From Sphyrna mokarran (Eukaryota), in contig JAGIQG010000040.1 in the NCBI GenBank assembly GCA_024679065.1, forward strand, positions 7,564,001 to 7,628,000: a stretch of DNA of 64,000 nt, read 5' to 3'. The translations under genes were made by a program, and so were the position numbers. This document shows positions 19,165 through 52,501 of this stretch, piece by piece (position 1 is the stretch's first letter; each line of letters opens with the position of its first letter). The notes under the pieces were generated by a model, which saw nothing but the letters and a program-made list of their open reading frames with translations, was not told the origin of the DNA and ran no database searches.

Positions 19165-20072
19165 TCACTTAAAAATATTAATAATTACACAAAGAGGGTA
19201 CTTCAGTCCATTCTTTAATTCCAACCTGAATTTACTCTGTGTTCCTGCATAAATAAATGGGTTAACACAAGAACTCAAAAGCTGGAGCATAAATCCGCTT
19301 TCCTCCACAATAAAGTTTGATTCTTTGTAATTTGAACCGGAGAAGTAAGTAAGCCTGGCAATTCGAACATATAGAAAGGTTATGAAGTACAACGAGTACA
19401 ATAGAATGAAACTGCCCGAGATTGTGAAGAGTAACACAATGGACCTCCTTCTGCTCTCCATCTCTGGGTCACTCTGATTCTCGCTATTACTTTGTGACCG
19501 GAGCCTTCTTCGGGCTTGACTGGCTGTTAATATATATCTGACGGTCAAAACATTGAACAGCAAGATCAGAATGACAGGGAGACAGGGGTTTAAAATGCGA
19601 TGAAGCCAATCATATGCAGCCCATGCAGCTGACTTATAAAATTCTGATTTCACACTGCAGAACCAGGGTGTATTGCCAACCATATATAAAGGTTCATATA
19701 TAAAATACAATAAGGAGACAAGTAAACAGTTCAATACACAAACTGTTCCGATCACCCACCTCGCCCTCTTTTCGGTGCAATATTTTATTTTCGCCTTCTG
19801 ACAACAGATGGCCACAAAACGATCCAACGTGAAAACGACCGTTAGCCAGACAGAAATATCTATGACTGTATATATTAAAGTAGAACGGAGGCTGCATACT
19901 GGCGTGATGGACAAGAAACTCAATGGAAAATAAATACCAGCAATCCGGTTGAGTATGACAGCAGTGGTAATGACCAACAGATCTGACACCGCCATGGACA
20001 CCAGGTAGTAAGTCACACATCTGGAGAGACCGCACTTTCCTCTAGACAGGATCACAATCACTGTGAAATTGG
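19165..20072 (-). CDS. GPR139/GPR142-like class A GPCR paralog A, exon 2 (full protein 325 aa with exon 1 at 27420-27489)
   Basis: Acceptor ctctctgtttacAG ends at 20073; (A)NFTVIVILSRGKCGLSRC, TM2 MAVSDLL, TM3 SVWLTVVFTLDRFVAIC, ECL2 WFC, TM7 SSCVNPFIY; frame open to TGA at 19165. Confidence 0.92.
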
Positions 20073-20149
20073 CTGTAAACAGAGAGAAATATTGAGAGAG
20101 AGTGGCTGAGAATGCATGTGTGGGTGAGAAATTGTCATCTGCGGTTCAC

Positions 20150-20460
20150 AGTGGCACGGTGGCACAGTGTTACCACTGCTGCCTCATAACACCAGGGAAG
20201 CGCATTCAATTCCGCCCTTGAGTGACTGACTGTGTGGAGTTTGCACGTTCTCCCTGTGTCTGCGTGGGCTTCCATCGATTTCCTCCCACAGTCCAAAGAT
20301 GTATGATTAGGTTGGTCATGATACATTGACCCTAATGCCTGGGGATTACTAGGGTAAGTACACATGGTTGTAAAAATAGGACATGGATAGGATTCTGGTC
20401 AGTACAGTCTCGATGGACCGAATGGCCTCCTTCAGTACTGTAGGGATTCTATGATTCTAT
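20150..20460 (+). mobile_element. tRNA-derived SINE, CR1-type tail (intron of paralog A)
   Basis: GGCACGGTGGCACAGTG head, V-SINE-like core, GGGATTCTATGATTCTAT tail. Confidence 0.85.
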
Positions 20461-21300
20461 TTTAAGGGAATAGATTGCTACTATTCGTTGCATAATGGAC
20501 TACTTAAAAAGGCTCGATGAAGCTTTTAGATTTGTCCTGTAATTTCCGAATGGACATATGCTTTTTTTAGTTAATTAGTACTGCTTTCTTCCCAATAATT
20601 ACCCGGACGTTAAGTAAGACAATCCCAATAACCTGGAGATTTAACATATTGAGAGCTTAGAGAATCAACTTCACAGAATTACAGAAGATGCCCTTCAATT
20701 CATCGAGTCACACAGATGCATGAAAGGCCTTGACCTGCCCACCTAATCTCACTTGCCTGCACTTGGCCAATACCCTTGAATGTTATAGCAGTCCAAGTAC
20801 TCATCTAGGACTTTTTAAAGGATGTAAGGTGCCCCTAACAGCCTCCCAGTTCATTCCCGACAATCACCACTCATTGCATGAAAACCGTTTTTCCTCAAAT
20901 TCCCCCCTAAAACTCTTAGTCCTCACTTTTAACTTGTGGCTTCTCGTAACTGACCGTTCAGCTAAAGGAACAGCAGTTCCCTAACCATTTTGTATTATAA
21001 TGCATAAATAAATACCAGAAATAATTCAAGAGTGTATATAACAGAACAATAAGGATAAACTTGCAAATGTATAAGAAGAAGAACTTGCGTTTAAATCTCT
21101 CTACATTCTACCAAGGACAACAAACCGAGTCATTTAATGAATTGTGTAAATACTTTTGGAAAACCTGACTGCTAACCTGTTAGATAATATTTTGAAACAA
21201 GATTATGCAAACGGACAAGCTTCATTTTAAGGATTTGCAACGGGGTGTTGTTGAGATTGCAATTCTCATTACAATGCCGTTCTTTGTCACTATATTAGGA

Positions 21301-21577
21301 CATAGAACATAGAACATTACAGCACAGAACAGGCCCTTCGGCCTTCGATGTTGCGCCGACCAATATAAAAAGCAATGCCCCTCCAAACTAAACCATTCCC
21401 TTCTCTTCCATATACTTATCAACTAACCTCTTAAACGCCACCAAACTTGGCGCATCTACAACTGCTGCAGGCAGGGCATTCCACTCCCGAACCACCCTTT
21501 GGGTAAAGAACCTACCTCTGATATCCGTCCTATAACTATCACCCCTTAATTTAAAGCTGTGTCCCCTCGTGCTAGCT
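21301..21577 (-). mobile_element. CR1 family 2 3' fragment
   Basis: Near-identical to 15053-15330; (ATAGAAC)n tail. Confidence 0.92.
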
Positions 21578-22377
21578 ATTGGATTTCCGTTTCGATCCTT
21601 GCCTACCAGTTTTAATAATGAAGTGCCAGTTCAAGAAAAGGTTCCTTCCCAGAAGCGGCTCTACCTCACTACTTCATCGTGGTGTCGAGATACATAACTG
21701 ACTCCACTGTTCAGTTACATTATGCTTGAAATCATTCTAGACATATACGATGGATGCATTTTTTTCCTTAATCCGAAGACGGGAAGGGTTTGAGAAATGA
21801 ACTAACGTTAGAATTGGAAAGAAAATTTCGGGCACAGTAAGAGTGACTGTGGAAATATTAGCAACAAATAATGTGGAAGGCAAAAGCCAAGCTGAAACAT
21901 TTAGAGTTAGAGTCTGTGGTTCTGTTAGTTCAAGCTAAATAGAGAATCATTTTCCTAAGTAACAATCAAATAAACTACTTCTATTTCTGTTAAATGCCTC
22001 ATAATGTCTTATAAAAAAATCATTAATTTGCATCAAGTGAGATTCATTCGAAAATATCGGTCTGTGAATCTTTCTTAAATGTTAGCCACTGTCAGCAGGA
22101 TAGTGATCCATGTCAAATAATTAAAAAAAAGAAAAATGCAGCACGAGTACAAGCCCTTCGGCCCTCCCATGCTGTGTCAATCGTGATGCCCTCACTAGAC
22201 AAAAGAAAAAGCCTTCAGCACGTAATCGGTCAGTATGCCTCTCTATTCATCCAGATGCCTCTTAAATGTTATAATTTGCCTGCTTCAACCATCTTACATT
22301 AAATGATGTAGGGAATGTAGCAAGGTTTGGGACCAAGGACAAGGTGGTAAGATGATTAATTATTTTTTTGAGCACAT

Positions 22378-25120
22378 TAGAACATAGAACATAGAACATT
22401 ACAGCACACAACAGGCCCTTCGGCCTTCGATGTTGCGCCAACCAATATAAAAAGCAATGACCCACCAAACTAAACCATTCCCTTCTCTTCCATATACTTA
22501 TCAACTAACCTCTTAAACGCCACCAAACTTGGCGCATCTACAACTGCTGCAGGCAGGGCATTCCACTCCCGAACCACCCTTTGGGTAAAGAACCTACCTC
22601 TGATATCCGTCCTATAACTATCACCCCTTAATTTAAAGCTGTGTCCCCTCGTGCTAGCTTTCTCCATCCTAGGAAAAAGGCTATCACTGTCCACCCTATC
22701 TAAACCTCTAATCATCTTATATGTTTCAATAAGATCCCCTCTTAGCCGCCTCCTTTCTAACGAAAACAACCTCAAATCCTTCAACCTCTCTTCATAGGAC
22801 CTGCCCTCCATACCAGGCAACATCCTGGTAAACCTCCTCTGTACCCTCTCCTATGCCTCCACATCTTTCTTATAATGTGGGGACCAGAACTGCACACAAT
22901 ACTCCAAGTGCGGCCGCACTAGAGTTTTGTACAGTTGCAACATGACGTTGCGGCTCCGAAATTCAATCCCCCTACCAATAAAAGCCAAGACTCCATATGC
23001 CTTCTTAACAACCTTCTCGACTTGACTGCCTACTTTCAGGGATCCATGCACATACACACCAAGATCCCTCTGTTCATCTAGACTACTAAGAATCCTACCA
23101 TTTGCCCTATACTCTACACATTTATTATTTCTGCCATAGTGCATTACCTCACACTTTTCCACATTAAACTCCATTTGCCACCTCTCGGTCCAGCTCTGCA
23201 ACTTGTCAAGTCCCTGTGCAAACTATAACACCCCTCTTCACTATCTACCACTCCACTGACTTTAGTGTCATCTGCAAATTTACTAATCCATCCTTCAATA
23301 CCCTCATCCAGATCATTTATAAAAATTACAAATAGCAGGGGCCCCAAAACAGACCCCTGAGGTACACCACTTGTCACCGAACTCCACGATGAATATCTCC
23401 CATCAACCAACACCCTCTGTCTTCTATCTGCTAGCCAATTCCTAACCCAATTAGCTAAATCACCCTCTATCCCATACATCTGCATTTTCTGCAGAAGTCT
23501 TCCATGGGCCACCTTATCAAACGCCTTACTAAAGTCCATATATACCACATCAACCGCCTTACCCCCATCCACCTCTTTAGTCACTTTTTCAAAAAACTCA
23601 ATGAGGTTAGTAAGGCACGGCCTACCCTTCACAAAACCATGCTGACTATCCCCAATCAATTCATTTCTCTCTAAATAACTATAAATCCTATCCCTAATAA
23701 TTCTCTCCAATACTTTGCCCACAACAGAAGTAAGACTCACTGGCCTATAATTCCCTGGAAGGTCTCTCTTCCCCTTCTTGAACCATGGGACCACATTCGC
23801 TATCCTCCAGTCCTCCGGAACCACACCCGTAACCAATGACGACCTGAAGATCAGAGCCAGAGGCTCTGCAATCGCCTCTCTTGCCTCCCAGAGAATCCTA
23901 GGGTAAATCCCGTCCGGCCCAGGGGACTTATCCAACTTCAAACCCTCGAGAATATCTAGCACACCCTCCCTATCTACCTCAATACTTTCCATTTTGCTAC
24001 CCTGTACCTCAGCGTTCTCCATAACTACATTTACATCACCTTGCGTGAATGCCGAAGAGAAATATTTATTCAGTGCCTCTCCAATCTCTTCAGGCTCCAC
24101 GCACAACTTCCCACTGCTGTCTATGACTGGCCCTAATGTTGTCCTAAGCAATCTTCTATTCTTAACATATCTAAAGAAAGCTTTAGGATTCTCCTTAATC
24201 CTATCAGCCAAAGTCTTCTCGTGTCCCCTCAATTCACTCTTTAGCTCCCTCCTGGCTAATCTATAGCTATCCATTGCACTAACCGAGCCTTCAAGCCTCA
24301 TCCTGACATAAGCCTCCTTTTTCCTTTTAACCAGCAAATCAACTTTTTTCGTACACCAAGGTTCTCTTACTCGACCATTTCCTCCTTGCCTGACAGGGAC
24401 ATACTTATCAAGGACTCGCAGCAGCTGCTCCTTGAATAAGCTCCACATTCCAGATGTTCCCAGTCCCTGTAGTTTCCTAGTCCAATCTATGCACCCTAAT
24501 TCTCTCCTGATGGCCTCATAATTACCCTTCCCCCAGCTATAACTACTGCCCCCAGCTTCATGCCTATCCCTATCCATCACTAAGGTGAACGTAACCGAAT
24601 TGTGGTCACTATCACCAAAATGTTCACCAACTTCCAAGCCTAACACCTGGTCTGGCTCATTGCCCAGCACCAAATCCAATGTAGCCTCACCTCTAGTTGG
24701 CCTATCTACATACTGAGTCAAAAAACCTTCCTGCACACTTTGTACGAAAACTGACCCCTCTAACGAGCTAGAGCTATAACTATTCCAATCAATATTAGTA
24801 AAGTTAAAGTCCCCCATAACAATTACCCTATTACTTTCACTCCTGACCAGAATTGACTTTGCAATCCTTTCCTCTACCTCTCTAGAACTTTTAGGAGGTC
24901 TATAAAAGACTCCCAACAGGGTGACCTCTCCTCTCCTGTTTCTAATCTCAGCCCATACTACCTCAACAGACAAGTCCTCATCAAACTTCTTTTCTGTCAC
25001 TGTGATACAGTCTTTGACTAATAATGCCACTCCTCCCCCCCCTTCTACCTCCTTCTCTACTCCGACTAAAGCATTTGAACCCCGGAACCTGCAACATCCA
25101 TTCTTGTCCCTGCTCTACCC
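22378..25120 (-). mobile_element. CR1 family 2, near-complete ORF2 (APE endonuclease + RT), disabled
   Basis: 628-aa ORF with [33 protein letters not shown]; frameshift near 23205 and TAG at 22851; tail at 22378. Confidence 0.95.
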
Positions 25121-25124
25121 AACA

Positions 25125-25680
25125 TTGACCTGTGCCAATCATGATGTCCGAACTAAACTAAAAAAAAGCCTTCTGCCCTTATTTGGTTCGATCCCTCTAA
25201 TCGATCCCTATGCATGCAGATACCTCTTAAATGTTGCTAATGTACCTGCTTCCACCAGCTCCTCTGGTAGAGCAGTCCAAGCACCCAACATTCTGCGTGA
25301 GAAACATCCTCTGCAATCTTCCTTAAACATTCCCCCTCTCGCATTGAACAGGTGCCCCCTTCTAATTGAAGTTTCTATCCTACTAAAAAGCCTCTGACAA
25401 TCCATCTCCTCTATGCCTCTCATAATTCTGTAGAACTCTATCAGGTCTCCCCTCAGCCTCCGTCTTTCCAACTAAGACAATCTTTTTTATTCAAGCTCCA
25501 CTCATAGCCAACACCCGCGAAACCAGGGAACATCCGAGTGAATATCTTTTGCTCTCTCTCCGAAGCTTCTGGCATTATAGTGACCAGAACTGAACGCGAT
25601 ACTCCAAATGTACCTGAAGCAAGTTTTCATGTATCTGCAACCTGATTCCCTAACTCTTGTATTCAATGGCCCAGATGATG
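25125..25680 (-). mobile_element. Older CR1 3' fragment (different family)
   Basis: ERRRLRGDLIEFYRIMRG...WTALPEE; similar tail piece at about 22140-22290. Confidence 0.75.
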
Positions 25681-26008
25681 AAGAGAGTTTATCCGATGAT
25701 TCTCACAAAATAACAGTAGTTAATAATAAAATAAAACTATGTATATACCGTGATAAAGGAGTATGAATGTTAAGCCAAAAGAACAGTGTCAAAAAAAACC
25801 AAACTACATTAACACAATAATAATTGTCTGATAATTAACTTACATGACAATGTCAAGAACACAACATTAGACTACGTTTAGACTTTAATAAAATGTGAGA
25901 CTTCAGGCAGAGTAGCTACATCACTAGCATAACAGATTATGTTACATCGTGTGATAATTAATGCGAAGCAACATTGACAATAAAACAAGTATTAATACTT
26001 GCACAATG

Positions 26009-26635
26009 ATGGTGAAGGCAGGCACTCTGGAGTTATTCAAGAGATACTTACATGGGCACATGAACAGAATGGGGATGGAGGGGTATAGAAAATTGATTTA
26101 AAATAGGGATCATGAGCCGTGGGAATTTCCTGGGAAGTGTGTAAATTGTCGATGATACTGATGTATTTGTTTTATCCTACAGGTACTTCGGCCCTCCTTG
26201 TCTAACAAGGGGCATACACGCGATGGGTCATGAGAGGGCTGCTCTTGGATTTTTCGAGAGTATCCTAGTGCTTCACGTCGTTAGTGTACGTTGGACCTGG
26301 ACCATTTGATGGGCAACACGACAACTCAGTGACTATTGCTGTGCTGTGCTGATACATGGATTTGGGCCTGTGTCTGTGGGAGTTTGCACATTCTCCGCAT
26401 GCTTGCGTGGGTTTTCTCTGGGGGCTCCGGTTTCCTCCCACATCCCAAAGATGTGCTCTTAGGCTGATTAGCAGAACAAATTCTCCCTAAATGGTCTCAA
26501 ATTTGGTTCTAATGCATAGATCTATAAACATAGACAGAGATGACAGGGATCATGAGTAGAAGTGGGAACATGGAGGTGGCGGTGCGGGCTTGTTGGGCCA
26601 AAGGGCCTGTTTCTCGTGCTGTTTTGTTCTTCTTT
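26009..26635 (+). mobile_element. CR1 family 3 3' end with long 3' UTR containing a SINE core
   Basis: Homologous to 59248-59892 and 41194-41820. Confidence 0.85.
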
Positions 26636-27419: not shown

Positions 27420-27489
27420 CTAAAACTCCGACAACTGCTAGAACTGGATAGTAAACGGCAAACAGCAGACCATTTGGTATTCCGTGCAT
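27420..27489 (-). CDS. GPR139-like paralog A, exon 1
   Basis: gaaATG; MHGIPNGLLFAVYYPVLAVVGVL + 1 nt, donor GTAATA; 70 nt, phase 1 compatible with the exon starting at 20072. Confidence 0.85.
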
Positions 27490-27540
27490 TTCTTTCAGAA
27501 GTTCTGAACGCGATTTGCACTGTGCTGAGTCGTTGCCACA

Positions 27541-27548
27541 TTTATATA
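27541..27548 (-). promoter_or_regulatory. TATA box of paralog A
   Basis: TATATAAA 52 nt upstream of ATG; same motif 51 nt upstream of the paralog B ATG. Confidence 0.55.
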
Positions 27549-27919
27549 TGATATTCATTCCCAGGAGATAGGCTGATGCATGATTCAAAACTAACATGAA
27601 CAGATTACAACATTTCCTACAGGGCTCCGTTTGTTGATGGAGATATTAATTTTTAAGGAGCGCTGATTTTGCATTAATTTGAATACACAACGTCTATGTT
27701 GTACGATTATGTTGTACACAGGACCAGGAGAATATAGTTTTGCTAATTGTGGGAGAATAGTTCAACACCGTTATATATAATGTGAATTGCTCACAAAAAA
27801 CTATTATTCTTTGTAGAGCCAGAACCATTTCAACAAGTTCACATCATTTGTCACAGGTTCACTTTGGCACTTCTAGGTTTCCTATGGACGTTTCCCATTT
27901 TCAACGATTTTAAGAGGTG

Positions 27920-29331: not shown

Positions 29332-32300
29332 ATGGTCTACACCTGAACCAGAGGGGAACCAATATCTTGGGGGGGAAATTTGCAAAGGCTATGCAGGGGG
29401 TTTAAATTGATTCAGAGGGGGGGTGGGATCCTGAGTAGTTTGGATGTTAAGAGGGACGAGAATACGGGGGGTCATAGATGAGAACTGTAAAGCACCGCAG
29501 CGTAAGGGTGGAGGAGGGCATGGTTTGAAATGCGTATACTTTAATGCAAGAAGTATTCGCAATAAGGTGGAGGAACTTGCAGCTTGGATCAGTACCTGGA
29601 ACTTCGATGTTGTGGCCATTTCAGAGACATGGATAGAGCAGGGACAGGAATGGTTGTTGCAGGTTCCGGGGTTCAAATGCTTCAGTCGGAGTAGCGAAGG
29701 AGGTAGAAGGGGGGGAGGAGTGGCATTATTAGTCAAAGACTGTATCACAGTGACAGAAAGGAAGTTTGATGAGGGCTTGTCTGTTGAGGTAGTATGGGCT
29801 GAGATTAGAAACAGGAAAGGAGAGGTCACCCTGTTGCGAGTCTTTTATAGACCTCCTAAAAGTTCTAGAGAGGTAGAGGAAAGGATTGCAAAGTTGATCC
29901 TGGACAGGAGTGAAAGTAATAGGGTAATTGTTATGGGGGACTTTAACTTTACTAATATTGATTGGAATAGCTATAGCTCTAGCTCGTTAGAGGGGTCAGT
30001 TTTCGTACAAAGTGTGCAGGAAGGTTTTTTGACTCAGTATGTAGATAGGCCAACTAGAGGTGAGGCTACATTGGATTTGGTGCTGTGCAATGAGCCAGAC
30101 CAGGTGTTAGGCTTGGAAGTTAGTGAACATTTTGGTGATAGTGACCACAATTCGGTTACGTTCACCTTAGTGATGGATAGGGATAGGCACGAACCTGGGG
30201 GCAGTAATTATAGCTGGGGGAATGGTAATTATGAGGCCATTAGGAGGGAATTAGGGTGCATAGGTTGGACTAGGAAACTACAGGGACTGGGAACATCTGA
30301 AATGTGGAACTTATTCAAGGAGCAGCTACTGCGAGTCCTTGATAAGTATGTCCCTGTCAGGCAAGGAGGAAATGGTCAAGTAAGGGAACCATGGTGTACT
30401 AAAAAAGTTAATTTGCTGGTTAAAAGGAAAAAGGAGGCTTATGTCAGGATGAGGTTTGAAGGCTCAGTTAGTGCACTGGATAGCTATAGATTAGCCAGGA
30501 GGGAGCTAAAGAGTGAGTTGAGGAGAGCTAAAAGAGGACACGAGAAGACTTTGGCTGATAGGATCAAGGAGAATCCTAAGGCTTTCTTTAGATATATTAA
30601 GAATAGACGATTGGTTAGGGCAAGATTAGGGCCAGTCAGAGACAGCAGTGGGAAGTTGTGTGTGGAGCCTGAAGGGATTGGAGAGGCACTGAACAAGTAT
30701 TTCTCTTCGGTATTCACGCAGGGAGATGTAAATGTAGTTTTGGAGAACACTGGGATACAGGGTTGTAAACTGGAAAGTATTGAAGTAGATAAGGAGGATG
30801 TGATAGATATTCTTGAGGGTTTGAAGTTAGATAAGTCCCCTGGACCGGACGGGATTTACCCTAGGATTCTCTGGGAGGCGACAGAGGCGATTGCAGAGCC
30901 TCTGGCTCTGATCTTCAGGTCGTCGTTGGTTATGGGTTTAGTGCTGGAAGACTGGAGGATAGCGAATGTGGTCCCATTGTTCAAGAAGGGGAATAGAGAC
31001 TTTCCGGGGAATTATAGGCCAGTGAGTCTTACTTCTGTTGTGGGCAAAGTATTGGAGAGAATTATTAGGGATACGATTTATAGTTATTTAGAGAAAAATG
31101 AATTGATTGGGGATAGTCAGCATGGTTTTGTGAAGGGTAGGTCGTGCATTACAAACATAGAACATAGAACATAGAACATTACAGCACAGAACAGGCCCTT
31201 CTGAAACCTTATTGAGTTTTTTGAAAAGTGACCAAAGAGGTGGATGGGGGTAAGGCAGTTGATGTGGTATATATGGACTTTAGTAAGGCGTTCGATAAGG
31301 TGGCCCATGGAAGGCTTCTGCAGAAAATGCAGATGTATGGGATAGAGGGTGCTTTAGCTAATTGGGTTAGGAATTGGCTAGCAGATAGAAGACAGAGGGT
31401 GGTGGTTGATGGGAGATATTCATCGTGGAGTTCGGTGACAAGTGGTGTACCTCAGGGGTCTGTTTTGGGGCCCCTGCTGTTTGTAATTTTTATAAATGAT
31501 CTGGATGAGGGTATTGAAGGATGGATTCGTAAATTTGCAGATGACACTAAAGTCGGTGGAGTGGTAGATAGTGAAGAGGGGTGTTATAGTTTGCAGAGGG
31601 ACTTGGACAAGTTGCAGAGCTGGGCCGAGAGGTGGCAAATGGATTTTAATGTGGAAAAGTGTGAGGTAATTCACTTTGGCAGGAATAACAAATGTGTAGA
31701 GTATAGGGCTAATGGTAGGACTCTTAATAGTGTTGAAGAACAGAGGGATCTTGGTGTATATGTGCATAGATCCCTGAAAGTTGGCAATCAGGTCGATAAG
31801 GTTGTTAAGAAGGCATACGGAGTCTTAGCTTTTATTGGTAGGGGGATTGAATTTCGGAGCAGCAACGTCATGTTGCAACTGTACAAAACTCTAGTGCGGC
31901 CGCACTTGGAGTATTGTGTGCAGTTCTGGTCCCCGCATTATAAAAAAGATGTGGAGGCATTGGAGAGGGTACAGAGGAGGTTTACCAGGATGTTGCCTGG
32001 TATGGAAGGCAGGTCTTATGAAGAAAGGCTGAGGGATTTGAGGTTGTTTTTGTTAGAAAGAAGGCGGCTAAGAGGAGACCTTATTGAAACATATAAGATG
32101 ATTATAGGTTTAGATAGGGTGGACAGTGATAGCCTTTTTTCTAGGATGGAGAAAGCTAGCACGAGGGGACATAGCTTTAAATTAAGGGGTGGTCGGTATA
32201 GGACGGATATCAGAGGTAGGTTCTTTACCCAGAGGGTGGTTAGGGTATGGAATGCCCTGCCTGCGGCAGTTGTAGATGCGCCAAGTTTGGTGGCGTTTAA

Positions 32301-32417
32301 GAGGTTAGTAGATAAGTTTATGGACGAAAAGGGAATGCTTTTTCCTAATTGGGCGGCGCAACATCGAGGGCCGAAGGGCCTGTTCTGCGCTGTAATGTTC
32401 TATGTTCTATGTTCTAT
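29332..32417 (+). mobile_element. CR1 family 2: end of ORF1 plus whole ORF2, disabled
   Basis: GLHLNQRG (ORF1 end), ORF2 CVYFNARS, ISETW, GDFN, SDHN, QHGF, FADD; broken by a 45-nt antisense insert at 31157 and a 1-nt deletion near 31225; (GTTCTAT)n tail. Confidence 0.95.
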
Positions 32418-33252
32418 TAACATGTGGGAATGTGATAAATACAACAACGTTCAACGATGGACGGCAGAACGTTAAATAAAGAGTTGGAAAGATTCAATGA
32501 AGCAGAAAGCATGATTGATGCTCTTCATAAGAAAATGAGAGCTAATTATTATCTTTAATCAATTTCTACTAACCAAAAGCTTTCATTTACTGTTGTGTAA
32601 CATTTAGCATCCTTCTTGAAGCTGTGAACTAATGCAAAAATACAACGTTCAGAATTAAAAACTATTTACAAACCTGAGTATTGATGTAAGTCCTCACGTG
32701 ACGTCCTGGACATGTAGAAGTTTAACTAATCGACATTTCAAAATTCAATGGATATTTACAGCTGCTGAATCTTCATCAAGGAAGAGGAAGATATGGAAAC
32801 AACTGTTCAATTATACACATGTAGTACTTAAGTTTTTTTCATTTAGCTGTCCGTGCAATATGCATTTATTCTACAAGTTAATGAAACCTCAACACTAACG
32901 TTGATATACATATTAGATGTTATACAATTTCATACATCCTTAGGTAATGAATGGAGTTTCTAATCTCAAATCTTCCTTTCTACAATTCACAATATTTACA
33001 AACGAATATAGATTTGTGCAATCGATTTACGACTTTGAGTGGAATTCATAAGATATCAGGATATCAAAATGCAAGAGAAATGAAAACTAAGTCAGAACGG
33101 TTTATAAACTGAGTAATGCGCATAGCTAAATGCGCACATTGAGTAAGGATTTAAAAACGAGTGCGCCATGGAAGGAACAGATGTGTGGCATGGGCAACAC
33201 AAGGCATCCTGCAATATAATCTGCAAATCATTTTCGGAGCATTTTATTGACA

Positions 33253-34160
33253 TTATCTCGATATTGTAGCACAAAGCTTCAGTGGATATTTCAGGCCATT
33301 AATCAACTGGACTCTCATTTTTCCCTGGGTCACAGCATAAATAAACGGGATGACGCAGGAAGTCAATAGTTGGAGCACATATTCACTTTCTGGCAGAGCA
33401 AAGATGGAATTACTGAAATTGGAAGCGAGAAATAAATAACTTCTGAAATTCGAACATGTACAATGTTTATAAAAGAGATGATGTATGACAGCATCAAAGT
33501 ACCCGAGATAGCAGAGAGTAAAACAATAGACTTTTTCCGGTTCTCCATCTCTGCATCACAATGATCCTCCTGATTGTTTTGGTCCCAGATTCTCTTGCAG
33601 GCTCTATTGGCCTCTAGAATATGTCTGACAGTCATTGAGTTGAGCACCAATACCAGGATGAATAGAAGAGAAGGGTTTAAAGGTAAACATATCCAGCTAT
33701 AAGCTATCCATGCCAGTGACGTATAAATTATTCCCTTAATGTCACAGAACCAAGGTATATTACTAATTATGTTCTTAGGTTTAATTTGTAAATGTATGAA
33801 CATATTCTTTACACGGGCGAATACAGACACAATTAATGTAACACGTGCTGTCATCTTCTACTCGGTGCAGTAAGTTATTTTCAGTTTCTGGCAGGAAATA
33901 GTCACAGATCGATCAAAGATGAAAGCGACTGTTAATCAGGCAGAGCTTCAATGCCGCAATATTTAAGGCAGCTAGTCAACTACAGATTGGTGCAATCGAC
34001 AGAAAACTTGTAGGAAAATAGACCCCAGCGATTCGGTTCAACAGGACTGCCGTGACCATAAACAGTAGGTCTGACACCGCCATGGACAACAGATAATAAT
34101 TGACACGGCCAGAGAGACCGTATGTTCTTCGAGACAATATCATACTGATTTCCACATTAG
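33253..34160 (-). pseudogene. GPR139-like paralog B, exon 2 (pseudogene)
   Basis: ILSRRTYGLSGRVNYYLLSMAVSDLL...FDRSVTISCQKLKITYCTE*...PWFC...EMENRKKSIVLL...SCVIPFIYAVTQ...KYPL; at least three in-frame stops, frameshifts, acceptor AG reads AA at 34161-34162. Confidence 0.9.
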
Positions 34161-34309
34161 TTATTGTACGGGTGAGGTAAAGGGAGAAATTAGATACGTT
34201 AATTTTGCACCCCTTTAAAATAATCAGTCTTATTGATTTCTTGCGAAATTTAAATGTTTATAACGTAGTCATAATCTTTTATTTAAAAAGTTGGGACAAC
34301 TTATGGAAT

Positions 34310-34622: not shown

Positions 34623-34624
34623 GA

Positions 34625-36270
34625 ATTGATTTGATTTGATTTTTTATTGTCACATGCATTAACATACAATGAAAAGTATTATTTCTTGTGCACCATACAG
34701 AGAAACATACTGTTCATAGAGAAAGAAACAGGACACTGCAGAATGTAGTGATATAGTCATAGCTAGGTTGTAGAGAAAATTTAACTTAATGCAAGGGAAG
34801 TCCATTAAAAAGTCTGACAGTAGCAGGGAAGAAGCTGTCGGTACATGACCTCAGACTTTTCTATTTTTTTCCGAATGTAAGCGACAATGTTCGGGGAGCA
34901 TGGGGTCTTTAATTATGCTGGCTGCTTTGCCGGGGCAGCAAGAAGCGTTGACAGTCAATGGATGGGAAGCATAATGGACTGGGCTACATTCTTGACCTTT
35001 TATAGTTCCTTGCGGTGTTGGGCAGAGCAGGAGCCACACCAAGCATTGATACAACCAGAAAGAATGCTTTCCATGATGCATCTGTAAAAATTGGTAAGAA
35101 TCGTAGCTAACATGCCAAATTTCCTTAGTCTTCTGTGAAAGTAGAGGCATTGGTGGGCTTCCTTGACTGTAGTGTCGGCATGTTTGTGGTGATTCATGCA
35201 CCTAAAAACGTGAAGCTCTCGACGCTTTGTACTTCGTAGCCATTGATGTAAACAGGGGTAAGTTCCCTTGTATGCTTTCTAAAGTCGATGACAATCTCCT
35301 TCGTTTTGTTGACATTGAGGGAGAGATTATTGTTACTGCACCAGTTCACCAAATTCTCTATCTCATTGCTGTATTCTGTCTCATCATTGTTTGAAATCCG
35401 ACCCACTACGTGTGGTATTGTCAACAAACTTGAAAATCAAATGGGAATTTGGCCTTATAGATATATAAGAAATACAGTAGGAGGTCTGAGAACAATAGCC
35501 TGATAAAGCTCCTAAACATCGCGAGATTTCAAACACGCGCCCAACAGTTCTCAAGACTCACTCTATTACTAACTGGAGTTGTTAGGAATATTCAATGACA
35601 AGTGAGAGACTCAACTGATAAAGGTACAAGCCAAGTCATCTGCTTGAATGACGACTTGGCTTTAAATGCCAATGTCAGACTCCTATTGTCAGACTACAGC
35701 TTAGTATCCAATACTATTATTCCCACGAAACTCATCTCCAAACTCTGTAGAATTTCAGTTTCTGGCAGGAAATAGTCACAGATCGATCAAAGATGAAAGC
35801 GACTGTTAATCAGGCAGAGCTTCAATGCCGCAATATTTAAGGCAGCTAGTCAACTACAGATTGGTGCAATCGACAGAAAACTTGTAGGAAAATAGACCCC
35901 AGCGATTCGGTTCAACAGGACTGCCGTGACCATAAACAGTAGGTCTGACACCGCCATGGACAACAGATAATAATTGACACGTCCAGAGAGACCGTATGTT
36001 CTTCGAGACAATATCATGCTGATTTCCACATTAGTTATTGTACGGGTGAGGTAAAGGGAGAAAGCCTTGCAGGGCACCTGTGTTGACGATGATAGTGGAG
36101 AAGTGTTGCGTCTCCTTCCTGATTTTGGTCTGTGAGTTAGCAAGTTCAGGATCCAGTCGCAAAAGGAGCTGCGGAGGTCCAGATCACAGAGTTTGGAGAT
36201 GAGTTTCGTGGGAATAATAGTATTGAATACTAAGCTGTAGTCAATAAATAGGAGTCTGACATTGGCATTT
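34625..36270 (-). mobile_element. Rex1/Babar-like LINE RT fragment, split by the insertion at 35489-36063
   Basis: VRLLFIDYSLVFNTIIPTKLISKL (36064-36270), TGALQG, then WCSNNNLSLNVNKTKEIVIDFRK (35194-35427); (ATCAA)n tail at 34625. Confidence 0.8.
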
Positions 36271-36445
36271 AAAGCCAAGTCGTCATTCAAGCAGATGACT
36301 TGGCTTGTACCTTTATCAGTTGAGTCTCTCACTTGTCATTGAATATTCCTAACAACTCCAGTTAGTAATAGAGTGAGTCTTGAGAACTGTTGGGCGCGTG
36401 TTTGAAATCTCGCGATGTTTAGGAGCTTTATCAGGCTATTGTTCT
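35489..36445. repeat. 260-bp inverted repeat (35489-35748 / 36186-36445)
   Basis: Arms align without gaps (coordinate sum 71934), few substitutions. Confidence 0.92.
35753..36063 (-). pseudogene. 311-bp direct duplicate of the paralog B exon-2 5' end (copy of 33879-34189)
   Basis: Constant offset 1874, only isolated substitutions, same stop codons. Confidence 0.92.
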
Positions 36446-38074: not shown

Positions 38075-38144
38075 TTGGAATGCCGATAGGTGCAATGAAT
38101 GGATAGTAAATTGCAAACACTAGATCTTTTGGTCTTGTGTGCAT
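38075..38144 (-). pseudogene. GPR139-like paralog B, exon 1
   Basis: gaaATG; MHTRPKDLVFAIYYPFIAPIGIP + 1 nt, donor GTAAAT; 70 nt like paralogs A and C; not in the ORF track. Confidence 0.85.
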
Positions 38145-38194
38145 TTCTAATAGAAGCTGTGAGTTCACTTTGCTCATCACAGAAAATCATTCCA

Positions 38195-38202
38195 TTTATA
38201 TA
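38195..38202 (-). promoter_or_regulatory. TATA box of paralog B
   Basis: TATATAAA within a 14-mer (CATTTATATATGAT, + strand) shared with paralog A. Confidence 0.5.
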
Positions 38203-38540
38203 TGATGTCAGGCTCTAGGGAGGTAATTCTTTGGTTTGATCTGTTGCATTTATTAAAATTACTGTAGCAAACAGCTTAATGCAATTGCTGCTCAGCTGGC
38301 GTTCATACTTTGATTGTTTACAAGAAGATCTGATGTGACAATGAAGCGAAGTGTTCTGAGATGACAGACAGATCCGAGTCGCATTTTTTTATTAAGAGAC
38401 TCACTAGCCGCCTTTAATTCCGGAATCTGCACGTTCTCCCCGTGTCTTCGTGGGTTTCCTCCAAGCGCTCCCGTTTCTTCCACAGTCCAGAAGATGTACT
38501 GGATAGCTGCATTGGCCATGGTAGATTCACCTTCAGTGTA

Positions 38541-42010: not shown

Positions 42011-42344
42011 TGAATGCAGCTCAGGTGCATTTCCTAAAAAGATTCAGCGTTAGTGGTGAAAATTGAAAACTTGAAATTGTTGGCGCCAGTGAGTCGGTGC
42101 ACAGCACTCCTGCAACTCCACAATACTCAGAGACCGAGTTCCAAAGAGAATTAGTTTTCAAATTATTATCCAAAGTGCAAATTGAAGACAAAATAGTTTA
42201 TTCTGTAATTCCACATGACAGTTCGTTAAACAGTTTAACTTCCTGTTCTCTTCTGCGTTCTAATTTGGAAATTGTATTTACGCATCAGCCTCGAGTGTTC
42301 TTGAGATTCAATTATCAATGGAACCAGCTGCACAATGTCGCATT

Positions 42345-45337: not shown

Positions 45338-46809
45338 GCTGTGATATTGCAGTAAAATTGTGTGGATAATAATTATCTAAAATGGGAAAATTAATGTTTA
45401 GGGATTGAGACAAACAAGACATTAATAGTGACTGTGCATATTGATAAGCCCATGACAGAGCAAGCAAATACATTTACACCCTGAGCAATACAACTGAGAA
45501 GCAGACACCTTGTGTTAGAATTGTAGCAGCTTTGGCAAAATGACACTCGAAGCATTGAGAACACGTTTGCTGCCCATATTATGTGCAAAACAATATATTA
45601 ATGGCGGTACTGGAGGGGATGCAAAGAGATTCATCAGTAGTCTGTTAGAGCAGAAAGACAGAACTCAAAGAGTTGTGAACCTGTGGAATTCTCTACCACA
45701 GAAAGATGTGGAGCCAATTCATTAGATATGTTGAAGAGGAAGCTGGACGTTGTCCTGGCAGCTAAATGGGTGAAGAGTTGTGAAGATAAAGCAGCAATGG
45801 GATATTGAAATTGTATGATTAGTCATGATCATATTGAATAGTGATGCAAGCTGGAAGGACCGAATGATCCATTCCTGCACTTTTCCTCCATGCTTCTATG
45901 TAACTAAAATGAAGTATTTACCAGCAAGGCATGAAAAATCTATGGCTATTTACTCCAGTAAATGCAATGTGAATCTGTCACTGATATAAGTTTTAAAGGT
46001 TAGTTAATTTATTATAAGCCGAATGAAGAGTAAAATGTTCCCACTATCAGAACCATGGGCATTTCTATAAGATCATCAATGACGTATTGATAGAAATTCA
46101 TGAGCTTTTTTTTCACACAAAGCATGTGAATTTCATTCAGACCTGGAGTTTTCTTTTAACAGGAAATCATAAAAAGTTTGAAGGGAAAGTTCAGTAAGAT
46201 TTTAGAAACATTCAAAGTACCTGCTACAAAAGCAACGGCTATAATACCAATTCTGGGTTTTATAAGAAAAGATTAGAATTAGAAAATCAAAGATGTGAAG
46301 TTAAATCTTTATAACGATTGGTCTAGCCACAACTGGAGTATTTTGCAACACTTTTCAGGAAGAATACAAAGGCTTCAGAAAGGGAGTAGAGGAAAGTTAC
46401 AAAATTGTTTGAAGGAAGGAGGGACGTCCGCTATAGCTATTGAGTGGATAACTCTTCCTAAGGAGGGGAAATGTTATATGGAGATATTGAACACCATGTG
46501 TCTGCAGTTAAACAGCAGCTGTTCCTATTCGCATCACAACACAGAACTCATTGAATTGAGGTGAACAAAAATGTAATCTAAAGCAGTAAGGTAAAAACAG
46601 CGGGTAAGATCTGCAAAGCACTGGCTGGAAGTGTGGTGAAGGTAAGTTCAGTCGTGGCTTTCACTAGGATGTCCGGTAAGTACTTGAAGATTTTTTTAAA
46701 AAATGCACGTTTGCAGCGTAATGTCAGGCTGATTTTCCCTTGGAAATGGTCGTCGCTGTCAAGGCAAGCTCAATGGCCTCTTATACCCTAACTATTGATA
46801 ATTATAAAT

Positions 46810-47100
46810 ATTAAAGTTTATTAATTGCCATAAGTAGGCTTACATTCACACTGCAATGAAGTTACTGTGAAATTCCCCCAGTCACCACACTCCAAAGCCT
46901 GATTGGGTACACTGAGGAAGAACTTAGCATTGCCAATGCATGCAACCCACACATGTTTGTAATGTGGAGGAAACCAACGCAGACACGGAAAGAAACTGCA
47001 AATTCCACTTGCTGAAAGTGTGGTGACATTGACACTGACAGTGACTCAAACTAGGAATCGTATCCGGGCCCCTCGCACTATGAGGCAGTAGTGCTAATCC
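46810..47100 (-). mobile_element. tRNA-derived SINE, second tail type
   Basis: Core remnant and AACTTCATTGCAGTGTGAATGTAAGCCTACTT tail. Confidence 0.7.
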
Positions 47101-47746
47101 TGTGCTATCGCGGTGCTGTTCTGTAACCTAAATAAGTAAATAAAAAAAATGTTTCTTTCAAGAGGTGATTGGATATAGCATTAGGAGTGAATGGGAAAAA
47201 AGGTTATGGGGAAAAAGTGGGATCAGGCTATTGACTTCAATGGTCAGCCATGATTGTAATGAACGGCAGAGCCAGCTCAAAGGGCCAAATGGCCTCCTTC
47301 TGCTCCTTTCTTCTATGTTTCTATATAAATTGATAACAGCGTTAGAGAAAAGTGAGTGACTTTGCTGTGGATCAACTTTGAAATCGATCCATTGAACTTC
47401 TAGGCAGAAAGGTATTGTACTTATTATGCTACAAAATCCATCTGTCCATCTATGGTTCTTTAACTATGCTTAGAGTCCAAAGCTCCATTTCACCATTACA
47501 AGTTAATTGAATTAATATATGTAGACATAATTAACTGGGTTTTATTTTTCTCTAGATGTTTTCATGACATTTTAAATACGGTCTATTTTAGGAAACACCC
47601 TCAAGAAAGTGAACTGTTTGTTCAATTCCCTGTAACTAACATGCACATGGGTGCTATCTAATTATATTGCCACTGATAAATAACAGATCGTTTCTGGCAT
47701 AGCACACACATTGGAAACATCTCGAGAACACAGGCTCACAGAGGAA

Positions 47747-47816
47747 ATGCACTCGCCAGCAAATGGTCCTTTATATGCCATTTACTACCCAGTCCTCGCA
47801 GCAATTGGAGTTCCAG
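47747..47816 (+). CDS. GPR139-like paralog C, exon 1
   Basis: gaaATG; MHSPANGPLYAIYYPVLAAIGVP + 1 nt, donor GTGAGA; 70 nt, phase 1. Confidence 0.88.
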
Positions 47817-47825
47817 GTGAGATAT

Positions 47826-48451
47826 ATAGAACACATAGAACACCACAGCACAGAACAGGCCCTTCGGCCTTCGATGTTGTGCCGACCAAAATAAAAAGCA
47901 ATGCCCCTCCAAACTAAACCATTCCCTTCTCTTCCATATACTTATCAATTATCCTCTTAAACGCCACCAAACTTGGCGCATCTACAACAGCTGCAGGCAG
48001 GGCAATCCACTCCCTAATCACTCTTTGAGTAAAGAACCTACCTCTGATATCCGTCCTATAACTCATACCCCTTAATTTAAAGCTGTGTCCCCTCGTGCTA
48101 GCTTTCTCCATCCTAGGAAAAAGGCTATCACTGTCCACCCTATCTAAACCTCTAATCATCTTATATGCTTCAATAAGATCCCCTCTTAGCCGCCTCCTTT
48201 CTAACGAAAACAACCTCAAATCCTTCAACCTATCTTCATAGGACCTGCCCTCCATACCAGGCAACATCCTGGTAAACCTCCTCTGTACCCTCTCCAATGC
48301 CTCCACATCTTTCTTATAATGTGATGACCAGAACTGCACACAATACTCCAAGTGCGGCCGCACTAGAGTTTTGTACAGTTGCAACATGATGCTGCGGCTC
48401 CTAAATTCAATCCCCCTACCAATAAAAGCTAAGACTCCATATGCCTTCTTA
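47826..48451 (-). mobile_element. CR1 family 2 3' fragment in the paralog C intron
   Basis: KKAYGVLAFIGRGIEFRS...EEKGMV; tail at 47826. Confidence 0.92.
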
Positions 48452-48630
48452 TGCCTCCATATGCCTCCATATGAAGGCAACTTTACGGGTTATTGGTGAG
48501 CTTTGCGCAGGATTAGTCCCAATCTATATCCATACATGTAGGGATATGTGTTGGATTTAAAAGTCACCATCAATATGAGAACACGTAGCCTCAAAACCAA
48601 AAATGCCCATGAATTTCTACCCATACGTCA

Positions 48631-49473
48631 AAAGTTGCAGCGGGACATTGACAGGATACAAGACTGGGCGGAGAAGTGGCAGATGGACTTCAACGCGGAT
48701 AAATGTGTAGGGGTCCATTTTGGCAGGAATAATGGGATGAAGGAGTACAATATAAGGGGTAGGAGTCTTAGCTGTGTTGTAGAGCAGAAGGATCTCGGGG
48801 TCCGGGTCCATAGGACTCTTAAATTAGCCTCGCAGGTGGAGGAAGTGGTCAAGAAGGGGTACGGTGTACTGGCCTTCATTAATCGAGGAATAGAGTTCAG
48901 GAGTCAGGAGGTAATGATGCAGCTCTATAAGACTCTTGTCAGACCCCACTTGGAGTATTGTGCGCAGTTCTGGTCGCCTCACTATAGCAAGGATGTAGAG
49001 GCTATTGAGAGAGTGCAGAGGAGATTTACAAGGGTGCTGCCTGGATTGGGAGGCAGGCATTATGAAGATAGGTTGAGAGAGCTGGGACTCTACTCCCTGG
49101 AGAGACGTAGGTTGAGAGGCGACCTGATAGAGGTTTATAAAATGTTGAGAGGAATAGATAGGGTGGACTCTCAGAGACTATTTCCCCGAGCTGAAATGGT
49201 TACTACAAGAGGACACAGATTTAAGGTGCAGGAAAGCAAATACAGAGGAGATGTTAGGGGTAAGTTTTTCACTCAGAGGGTGGTGAGTGAATGGAATGGC
49301 TGCAGTCAGAGGTTGTTGAGGCAAACTCGCTGGGGTCTTTTAAAAGAATTCTGGATGAGTATATGGAAACGAATAGAATAGGGGGTTATAGATTGGTCTG
49401 TGGATTGGTAGATGTGATCGGTGCAACTTGTGGGCTGAAGGACCTGTTTGTGCTGTATTGTTCTATGTTCTAT
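48631..49473 (+). mobile_element. CR1 family 1 3' fragment
   Basis: LQRDIDRIQDWAEKWQMDFN...RRRLRGDLIE; GTTCTAT tail. Confidence 0.92.
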
Positions 49474-49740
49474 ACGAATACTTCAATTGTTCTTGAACCC
49501 TGATGCAAAACAAAGAATCCAACTCAAACAGGTATTGCATGATATTACTACAACCTTGTCTAAGTATTGGCATAGAATGGGATTGTTGTCGGTAAAATAA
49601 TACCTCAGACTGTTAGTGCGTCAAAATCCAGTAATTTTTATTTCAAAACTCTGCAGTGTATTCCAGAATTTTGGGAGAAGTAGGATTACAGACTTCTCAT
49701 AGAACACAAACACAAGTAGGTGTTTATACTTATGAAGACG

Positions 49741-50053
49741 GGATAGGGTGGATAGTGAGAGCCTTTTTCCTCGGATGGTGATGACCAGCACGAGGGGACA
49801 TAACTTTAAATTAAGAGGTGGTAGTTATAGGACGGATGTCAGAGGCAGGTTCTTTACACAGAGGGTGGTGAGGGCGTGGAATGCCTTGCCTGCAGCAGTT
49901 GTGGACTCGCCTACTTTGGGGGCATTCAAATGTTCGGTGGATAGGCATATAGATGATATTGGAATAGTTTAGGTTAGAGGGTCCACTGGCCGGCGCAACA
50001 TCGAGGGCCGAAGGGCCTGTACTGCGCTGTAATGTTCTATGTTCTATGTTCTA
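49741..50053 (+). mobile_element. CR1 3' fragment (family 2-related)
   Basis: DSESLFPRMVMTSTRGHNFKLRG; (GTTCTAT)n tail. Confidence 0.88.
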
Positions 50054-51234
50054 ACTCCAGCAGGAATCATAATTCAAAGTTCCAATTCCTGCCAGACCTC
50101 CACTTCTTCCTTTCTGGGTCGTGATGCAGCCCTAGAGCTAATCAGGAATTACAGTCCTGCAGTCAGGACAAAGGAAATTCCTTCGGCAACAGTACCGACA
50201 TCCCTGTCTTTGAAGTTTATTGTGCAATCACGGATGTCCCAGCAAGACTCTTCCCGTTAAAATTCTGTATCGCGATCTGCCATCAGCAGCTGTTAAAAAC
50301 CGGTATCGTAACCCTCCATCTGTGCAATGATGTCCTACTAATATAAACAGGTCAGATTTGCAAAGTCTACAAAATAACAGCTACATTAAACTACCTGTCT
50401 TTATACAAATGAGACTTAAAGCATGTAAGACTTAACCAAATAGCTTATATTAATGCCAGGAGCAGTATAAGCTAAAGTAGATCAGTCATGATGAAGGTTT
50501 ATGTTTGTGACATATTCTAGGTACAAAACACATTAACCCTTTCCCTTCAGGTACAAAATGCATTCACCTTTTCCCTACTTCAGGAATAAATCTATTCTGA
50601 CACTGAGTTGACGATATCTTTAGCCTTCAGAACATTTACAGTGACATAACATGAATGTAAAAACCACCTAATCAAAATAATTTCACCCGATGTAAGGTCT
50701 GACATATTTAACACAGCACAGAATGAACATAGTTTGAAAATACTATTTTAATCTAGTCTAAATGCTTAGAATCAGTGGACGGGGTGGGAAAACAAAATTG
50801 TTCTGAGAAGAATTTGAAACTATAGGGTGACGTGATGGCACAGTGGTTAGCACTGCTGCCTCACAGTGCCAGGGAACTGGGTTCTATTCCAGGCTTGAGT
50901 CGCAGTCTATGTGATGTTTGCAATGAAAGGTGCAATGGCAGAATGGCACGGTATTAATTGAGTTCTCAACAATTGCAATTTATATCTCAAAATTTCACAA
51001 ATTTCTTTAACACAAATGCATTCATCTTACGTAATCATTTGATAAAGATAATCGTGTCATAATTGTTACCTCCAGACTACCATGTTCAATTGCCTTCAAT
51101 TTTCCTTCTTGATGCCAATTTCAGAGCGCTGAAAATTCAGGTCCTGTTAGCACGTTACAGTTTCTCTAGTTACTCATTTTCCTTACTCAGTAAAACGTGT
51201 ATCGAATGGATGCATATTTACATAAGGAATAGAG

Positions 51235-51495
51235 CGGCACAGTGGTTAACACTGCTGCTTCACAGCGCCAGGGACTTGGGTTCGATTTCTAGTTTTGTTC
51301 ATTCTCTGTGTGGAGTTTGTTCATTCCCCCCGTGTCTGCATTGGTTACCTCCAGTTGCTCCAGTTCACCCCCGCTGATGTACTGGTTAGATGCATTGACT
51401 AGAATAAGCGGTGGAGTGTGACGAGAAGGAGAATTTCACGGTAACTTCATTGCAGTGCTAATACAAGCCTTATTTGTGACTAATAAATATACTTT
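51235..51495 (+). mobile_element. tRNA-derived SINE, second tail type
   Basis: GGCACAGTGGTTAACACTGCTGC head, GGTTCGATTT, tail TGTGACTAATAAAT. Confidence 0.8.
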
Positions 51496-51581
51496 TGAAA
51501 GACTGGAAATATTGTACCGAAACCAACTGAAATAAAACTATTGATGGCATTATAATTTGTAACTTCTTCTTCGTTTTGCAG

Positions 51582-52501
51582 TTAACATCATCGCAATTGT
51601 GACTCTGACCCGCGGAGGTTGTGGTCTCTCCAGATGTGTCACTCGGTACCTATTGTTCATGGCAGTGACGGATCTGCTGGTTATCATCACTGCCGTGATA
51701 TTGAATAGAATAGGCGGTATTTATTTCAAGAACAGCTTCCTGTCCATGACATTAGCGTGCACGATCAGCACTGTACTTATTTATTCCTCCCGAGATTCTT
51801 CCGTCTGGTTAACGGTCACTTTCACCTTTGATCGATTTGTGGCCATTTGTTGCCAGAAACTGAAAACAAAATATTGCACTGAGCAAACAGCAGCTGTGGT
51901 TATATCAACAGTCTGTATGCTCAGCTGTTTGAAAAATATCCCCTTCGGCCTCACTTATGAGCCTTTGTACATAGTCAATAATGTGGCCTGGTACTGCAAC
52001 CAGAAACCTATATTTTTTGCTTCACCTCTATGGACAGCGTTTGACTGGTTTGATAGACTTTTAACCCCATGCGTCCCGGTATTCCTCATCATATTGCTCA
52101 ATGTCCTCACTGTCAGACACATTTTAGTAGTGAGTAGAGCCCGTAAAAAGCTCCGAGGCCACAACAATGCAGAGAATCAGCAAGATCCAGAGATGGAAAA
52201 TCGAAAGAAATGCATCGTTTTACTGTTCTCGATTTCTGGTAGTTTTGTCCTTTTGTGGTTAACCTACGTCATCAATTTCTTGTCTGTTCGAATAACAAAA
52301 ACAAACTATTTCATGGGTTTCAACTTCAGTAGCCAAAAGATTATTCTGCAGGAAAGTGGAAACATGCTTCAACTACTGAGCTGTTGCACCAACACGTTTA
52401 TTTATACCGTGACTCAGAAGAAATTCAGACAGCAGTTATGGGACACTGTGAAATATCCACTGAAATTAATTCCCAAGTTCAACAGTGAAACAACCAACTG
52501 A
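51582..52501 (+). CDS. GPR139/GPR142-like class A GPCR paralog C, exon 2 (full protein 329 aa)
   Basis: Acceptor cttcttcgttttgcAG ends at 51581; (V)NIIAIVTLTRGGCGLSRC, MAVTDLL, SVWLTVTFTFDRFVAIC, WYC, SCCTNTFIY; frame open to TGA at 52501. Confidence 0.92.

Follow-up and report, generated by a model that had tools for sequence, protein, structure and literature searches.

The receptor genes in the 64,000-nucleotide stretch of Sphyrna mokarran DNA analysed here (the window) belong to a class A GPCR family that, judged from its sequences, is expanded in sharks, rays and chimaeras, is apparently undescribed, and has about an even chance of being a chemosensory repertoire for polar, peptide- or amino-acid-like ligands. 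The class A assignment follows from 7tm_1, seven helices, N1.50, D2.50, DRx, P5.50 and Y7.53. Among 4,800 candidates, 2,212 clusters at 90% identity matched the family at E ≤ 1e-10, and 108 clusters at 50% identity matched with E ≤ 1e-30. A taxon name was available for 118 of the best 120 matches, and all 118 were elasmobranch; among the 21 deeper members looked up, 19 were named chondrichthyans, including two from Callorhinchus, and two carried no taxon. Heterodontus alone has at least 48 member clusters and accounts for 45 of the best 120 matches, 28 of which, counted by eye, lie on one 59.5-Mb sequence. Family members are clustered on several chromosomes, with pseudogenes among them. The preliminary description had proposed a birth-and-death cluster, and a very large, clustered family with gene birth and death is borne out by these cluster counts together with a pseudogene and a relic in the window; the opposite case that it had named, a few copies with one-to-one bony orthologs, is contradicted by the copy number.

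Exon mapping upheld the earlier reading of three paralogs, two intact and one a pseudogene. Gene A, on the minus strand, encodes an intact class A GPCR of 325 a.a. from exon 1 (27420-27489; 70 nt with ATG and GT donor, encoding a short N-terminus and the first part of TM1) and exon 2 (19165-20072; AG acceptor, frame open to the stop, Pfam 7tm_1 E 1e-21). Gene C, on the plus strand, is likewise intact (329 a.a.; exon 1, 47747-47816, 70 nt; exon 2, 51582-52501, 7tm_1 E 2e-16) and is 79% identical to the Heterodontus protein P0001. The pseudogene, B, lies on the minus strand; its exon 1 (38075-38144, 70 nt) retains the GT donor, and its exon 2 (about 33253-34164) has no AG at the expected acceptor and carries three in-frame stops and two frameshifts. 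The common 70-nt exon 1 starting with gaaATGCAC holds in A, B and C, each with a GT donor, from which the proposed phase-1 intron within TM1 follows; gaaATGCAC also matches at 42033 (minus) and 52500 (plus) in the window, neither of which is a first exon. As described before, no N-glycosylation sequon precedes TM1 in A or C, and the same was true of all 94 relatives starting with MH among the best 120 matches. A and C match the four proposed family signature motifs exactly, B only in degenerate form, and the head-to-head arrangement of B and C was confirmed, with the start codons 9.6 kb apart. A TATA-like box lies ~57 nt upstream of gene A exon 1, and a 14-nt TATA-containing stretch, reached in 2 of 200 shuffles, is common to the upstream regions of A and B; beyond it, no shared promoter motif was found. 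An upstream match between B and C was discarded as a promoter motif, since it reads as a repeat end.

Three further features in the window had been missed. A likely fourth copy, heavily decayed, covers the TM3-TM4 region at about 8221-8450 on the plus strand (tblastn E 0.016, a weak match), with weak profile matches and recognisable motifs spread over three frames; it lies directly after a LINE 3′ end. Within the intron of B, the 5′ part of B exon 2 has recently been duplicated: the 311 nt at 35753-36063 (minus strand) match 33879-34189 at 99.4% identity. Outside the receptor family, a germline-joined VNAR-like V gene occupies 2120-2619 on the minus strand (leader exon 2577-2619, V-J exon 2120-2452); the relic is ~6 kb away and gene A ~17 kb. 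A search for longer proteins related to the V gene, itself weak, found none. The proximity of the V gene to the receptors would agree, though only weakly, with an immune setting. CR1-like LINEs are abundant in the window, and in such repeat-rich DNA a largely neutral build-up of redundant copies would leave behind features like the pseudogene, the relic and the recent duplicate seen here. Nevertheless, we regard this explanation as highly improbable: dN/dS between A and C is ~0.15 (with dS near saturation), and subfamilies and pockets are kept across shark superorders, an ortholog conservation that largely refutes neutral accumulation.

In trees that did not include true GPR139, A, C and their relatives formed a chondrichthyan clade (support 96/96), and the nearest bony clade was a single-copy amphibian/sturgeon gene (support 98/95); an AU test did not reject the grouping of all bony genes together (p 0.15). 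Twenty amphibian genera each contributed a single cluster of the amphibian gene. A and C fall into different subfamilies, each closer to genes from other shark superorders. Their identity, 59% over exon 2 (E 1e-113), is far beyond chance; this value and their different, old subfamilies indicate that they are not a young tandem pair, so that the earlier wording of a tandem cluster is not supported in this sense. The separate subfamilies kept across superorders rule out a recent tandem origin. In the scenario that we propose, a single ancestral gene, of which amphibians and sturgeon still have one copy, would have multiplied before the chimaera-shark split and further within lineages thereafter, with the G-protein-facing half remaining fixed while the pocket residues diversified.

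We evaluated the predicted binding pocket at 14 positions, mapped by helix anchors rather than by superposition. Among 77 shark representatives, pocket sites evolved faster than other TM sites (rates 1.41 vs 0.63, p 1e-4), whereas the order was reversed in amphibians (0.16 vs 0.37); with a broader set of 43 positions, the shark pocket did not evolve faster than the other TM sites of the outer half (p 0.37). The scaffold is under purifying selection. The 48 Heterodontus proteins have 41 distinct pockets, and 23 amphibian/sturgeon proteins have five near-identical ones. At matched overall identity, pocket identity was 0.89 in 108 cross-superorder best pairs (overall 0.79) and 0.79 in 290 same-species paralog pairs (overall 0.78), the pairs being non-independent and the sample centred on gene C. 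The pocket of C recurs unchanged in proteins of three other genera whose overall identity to C is 73-78%. This pattern, kept in orthologs and changed in paralogs, fits a stable repertoire diversified by ligand better than an arms race with pathogens, and odorant receptors show it as well. Since the pockets vary as in smell receptors, the family is a reasonable candidate for a set of chemical sensors, and the rates and matched pairs agree with the original impression of a chemoreceptor repertoire. Any receptor family with several ligands, sensory or otherwise, would nonetheless be expected to show pocket divergence among its paralogs.

One alternative is that the receptors are immune or mucosal sensors that sit on leukocytes or barrier epithelia and, much like receptors for formyl peptides or chemoattractants, are directed at microbial or host peptides. 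The predicted ECL2 hairpin is peptide-receptor-like, weak matches to GPR15 and chemokine receptors occur, the germline-joined VNAR-like V gene shares the window, and one EBF-like site with one mismatch lies upstream of A. EBF-like sites are near chance, and EBF serves B cells as well as olfactory neurons. In mammals, clusters of odorant receptors, too, lie beside antigen-receptor loci, so linkage is no proof of function. When orthologs of different superorders are compared, identity is higher in the pocket (0.89) than elsewhere in the TM region (0.84), unlike in an arms race. The family is also unmentioned in the shark antigen-receptor-complex paper PMC12227049 (searched text and supplements) and the shark MHC paper PMC10751288 (text). 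We consider an immune role rather unlikely, at about one chance in four.

Still less probable, in our estimate, is that the family diversified against a set of endogenous peptides, its members serving as internal or somatosensory receptors (MRGPR-like in sensory ganglia, or else endocrine or reproductive). A model of P0001, the closest relative of C, has pLDDT 86, seven TM helices and an ECL2 hairpin. The fold search gave tied top Z values that singled out no receptor family; the top structural matches were mostly peptide receptors, tied with GPR139. The amphibian relative is frozen and single-copy, as expected for an endogenous ligand, and invertebrate neuropeptide receptors are relatives of the lineage (PMC12208981). 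Dozens of genes per genome and frequent pseudogenes, on the other hand, are unusual for hormone receptors. We know of no matching expansion of endogenous ligands.

Under the chemosensory reading, the subfamilies would differ in ligand, each responding to a polar, peptide- or amino-acid-like compound of its own, in the nose, taste buds, skin or chemosensory cells of the gut; A and C are accordingly predicted to have different ligands. The charged pocket residues (R3.36, D3.37, D5.39, D5.42, R5.43 and E7.36 in most sampled members), the TM3-ECL2 disulfide and the predicted ECL2 β-hairpin would favor water-soluble, charged ligands. In sharks, OR, TAAR and V1R genes are very few and the V2Rs number about 34; the scarcity of odorant receptors contrasts with the large olfactory organs (PMC10116579). 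In catshark, nearly all olfactory neurons are Go/TRPC2 microvillous with robust V2R expression (PMC10116579), so the nose is already supplied with a receptor family, which counts against the chemosensory reading. With somewhat less than even confidence, we propose from the sequences a fifth vertebrate chemoreceptor family, in which an orphan of the GPR139/neuropeptide lineage would have been recruited in cartilaginous fishes to a sensory repertoire larger than their V2Rs. If true, this family would explain how large shark chemosensory organs go with few known receptors.

The expansion is undescribed in the freely accessible literature searched. A term search of the texts of PMC12294341, PMC11979771, PMC10620051, PMC10751288, PMC12227049 and PMC8455134 found no mention of it. 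The searched supplement files of PMC12227049, PMC10115646 and PMC10529500 held nothing relevant, and those of PMC8455134 only one orthogroup line, "GPR142". Cartilaginous fishes have been described as GPCR-poor (PMC8455134); at least 48 members in one shark, masked by the automatic label "probable GPR139", contradict this picture whatever the tissue. If sensory, the family would mean that a chemoreceptor repertoire had arisen independently; if immune, it would be an unrecognised innate receptor array. Work on the ancestral ligand could tractably start from the single-copy Xenopus/axolotl relative.

L-Trp and L-Phe activate the class A receptors GPR139 and GPR142. GPR139 was the best PDB sequence match (E 1.9e-8 for gene C, 1.3e-12 for P0001), had the highest identity (24-26%) among the structural matches listed, and, with GPR142, has TM1 and TM3 motifs in common with the shark family. 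GPR139 matches scored only 37-51 bits at ~25% identity, whereas amphibian, coelacanth and teleost relatives scored 102-132 bits (query A). The shark family is multi-copy, unlike GPR139/GPR142, and has a TM3-ECL2 cysteine pair; its ECL2 and ICL3 are longer than in human GPR139 in alignments. The ligand-site residues of GPR139 include F3x33, H5x43, W6x48 and N7x38 (PMC5430874) and R6x51 (PMC8807744). By helix-anchor mapping, positions 3x33/5x43/6x48/7x38/6x51 are Y/H/Y/F/Y in A and Y/D/W/N/Y in C. Among 187 family members, W6.48 is kept in 170 and N at 7x38 in 91, whereas H at 5x43 occurs in 32, P6.50 in 11 and R/K at 6.51 in six. Since this Trp/Phe-site residue set is not kept, aromatic amino-acid ligands are not transferable from GPR139. 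The low identity, the copy number and the lost residue set rule out GPR139 orthology of A and C; "GPR139-like", as they had been called, is only the database label of a distant relative.

GPR210A/B are unstudied orphans beside GPR139/142, with members in coelacanth, gar and teleosts (Rinne et al. 2019, PMC6504862, in which "shark" and "cartilaginous" do not occur). A coelacanth/teleost clade (P0230, P0240, P0268, P0259), ~26% identical, was the next branch out in our trees, and the shark clade lies outside this sampled clade; by its taxa, it may correspond to GPR210. Unlike the shark family, these genes are few-copy and keep R6.51. The amphibian/sturgeon gene (e.g., XP_031757816.1, XP_069092602.1) has the same short N-terminus as the shark family, and a salamander protein has the DPEM-like ICL3 motif; it differs in its frozen pocket and in keeping P6.50 and K6.51. 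The shark family is not a member of the OR, TAAR, lamprey TARL, V1R or V2R repertoires or of the rodent FPR and MRGPR expansions, its closest relatives being in the GPR139/GPR210 lineage. A canonical odorant receptor was rejected, as neither A nor C matched 7tm_4 at E ≤ 0.01; 7tm_1 alone was above the Pfam cut-off, and OR52 chains matched P0001 only weakly (E 2e-4). The family nevertheless resembles these repertoires and expansions in its evolutionary pattern, with a short N-terminus, a nearly single coding exon, multi-chromosome clusters, pseudogenes and a pocket that orthologs preserve and paralogs vary.

Six-frame translation and splice-site reading bore out the gene anatomy of the preliminary description, which had proposed two intact receptor genes and one pseudogene with a common short first exon. 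Genes A (minus strand; exon 1, 27420-27489; exon 2, 19165-20072) and C (plus strand; exon 1, 47747-47816; exon 2, 51582-52501) are intact two-exon genes of 325 and 329 a.a., respectively; in each, exon 1 is 70 nt long and a phase-1 intron interrupts TM1. Pseudogene B (minus strand; exon 1, 38075-38144; exon 2, about 33253-34164) has the same first exon, and its second is broken by a missing acceptor AG, three stops and two frameshifts. An identical 14-nt stretch with a TATA-like box lies at an equal distance from the start codons of A and B (minus strand; approximately 27540-27555 and 38190-38206). A and C are 59% identical, with a dN/dS of ~0.15 at a dS close to saturation, and the idea that such genes are neutral copies is highly improbable. 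Weak sequence evidence near 8.2-8.5 kb points to a likely fourth relic of the family. In addition, part of B exon 2 was recently duplicated over 311 nt (35753-36063). This copy sits between two inverted repeats that are 98% identical (35489-35748 and 36186-36445), reflecting either a recent duplication linked to an insertion or an artefact of assembly.

C exon 2 matched 2,212 clusters (90% identity; E<=1e-10) among 4,800 candidates. All 118 named clusters among the best 120 were from sharks or rays, in 13 genera, usually labeled 'probable G-protein coupled receptor 139'; these matches point to an elasmobranch source for the window, probably a shark. Heterodontus contributed 45 of these 120, spread over 7 sequences, with 28 (counted by eye) on one 59.5 Mb sequence; 3 more came from a separate search, and the total is a lower bound. 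A exon 2 matched 108 clusters at 50% identity (E<=1e-30), indicating a family that is not only wide but also deep. Among 21 deeper members, 19 were named chondrichthyans and 2 lacked a taxon; two of the 19 were from Callorhinchus, so the expansion likely predates the chimaera split. The family is real and represents an orphan class A lineage that has expanded in a chemoreceptor-like manner. Its proteins are already annotated under a misleading name, and no description of the expansion was found in searches of openly accessible literature or in the shark and chemoreceptor papers and readable supplements searched. A whale-shark genome paper describes GPCRs as relatively scarce in cartilaginous fishes (PMC8455134).

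The AlphaFold model of P0001, a Heterodontus protein and the closest relative of C (79%), has a mean pLDDT of 86, with seven TM helices, an ECL2 beta-hairpin and a minimal N-terminus. Its structural matches were class A receptors, mostly peptide receptors with GPR139 tied, and therefore the fold alone does not give the function. That the family comprises internal or somatosensory peptide receptors is distinctly unlikely. The predicted pocket carries charged residues in most sampled members, suggesting polar ligands.

The 14 pocket sites are GPR139 ligand contacts, taken from the available portions of PMC8807744 and PMC5430874 and mapped via helix anchors. Among 187 chondrichthyan proteins, W6.48 was present in 170, N7x38 in 91, H5x43 in 32, P6.50 in 11 and R/K6.51 in only 6, whereas R/K6.51 occurred in all 28 proteins examined from the bony side or near the outgroup (23 from amphibians and sturgeon, 5 from the next clade), indicating that the GPR139 amino-acid site, as a set, was not inherited. 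Across 77 representative shark proteins, these 14 positions evolved faster than the rest of the TM sites (median 1.41 vs 0.63, p 1e-4) and faster than the remaining outer-half sites (p 0.01); in amphibians, the same sites were slower (0.16 vs 0.37). With a broader set of 43 class A pocket positions, the shark sites were no faster than other outer-half sites (p 0.37), which counts against the fast-pocket result, but the rank shift relative to amphibians was upheld (p 2e-4). With overall identity matched, pocket identity exceeded that of non-pocket TM sites in 108 cross-superorder reciprocal best pairs (0.89 vs 0.84) and fell below it in 290 same-species paralog pairs (0.79 vs 0.83); the p-values exaggerate the certainty, since pairs are non-independent and the sample is centered on C. 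The direction of the pair comparison still fits a long-kept, subfamily-specific ligand specificity. The conserved, single-copy and apparently unnamed amphibian/sturgeon GPCR (P0223, P0284-P0303) has a nearly invariant pocket, suggesting an endogenous ligand.

The most likely reading, at about even odds, is that the family of A and C represents candidate chemosensory receptors, in which each subfamily would respond to its own group of related, water-soluble ligands and would signal via the conserved intracellular face. Catshark olfactory neurons are nearly all microvillous with robust V2R expression (PMC10116579), and therefore other sensory sites merit equal attention.

Immune or mucosal peptide sensing is unlikely. 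The conservation of the pocket between orthologs speaks against an arms race, and a neighboring VNAR-like V gene is no more than a weak hint of an immune role. This germline-joined gene (minus strand, 2120-2619) has a split leader; its V-J exon reads open past the FGxG J motif as far as a GT donor, and its best PDB matches were shark VNARs (E 1.5e-26). No exact RSS heptamer was found in the first 6 kb of the window, and constant exons would be expected beyond its left edge. The gene may be of a non-rearranging IgNAR/NAR-TCR type. Elsewhere, CR1-like LINE remnants abound in the intergenic DNA; long copies (23147-25394, 29392-32472 and 60895-64000) are mutually 90-97% identical, and several of them retain long open frames, which suggests that they were active recently. 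Long imperfect palindromes at 16992-17220 (85% self-complementary) and 52829-53602 (76%) are probably MITE-like DNA elements.

The phylogenetic position was determined with 232 of 309 proteins (those covering >=240 profile columns) and subsequently with subsets of 47 (quick search) and 30, all without true GPR139. The chondrichthyan genes formed a single clade (support 96/96), in which A and C fell in different subfamilies, C among genes from Heterodontus, Pristiophorus and Heptranchias, indicating that the cluster in the window is old. Their sister was the amphibian/sturgeon gene (98/95), although a tree uniting all bony genes was also acceptable under the AU test (p 0.15). A single-copy bony relative is present, with one gene per genus in 20 amphibian genera and no amniote or teleost copies among the matches listed in a word-limited search. 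Human GPR139 was the best PDB match, a remote one (E 1.9e-8; 26% identity in the structural alignment). The next branch out in the trees was a coelacanth/teleost clade, which resembles, in its taxa alone, GPR210A/B, the orphans that Rinne et al. 2019 (PMC6504862) list next to GPR139/142; sharks are not mentioned in the passages of that study examined.
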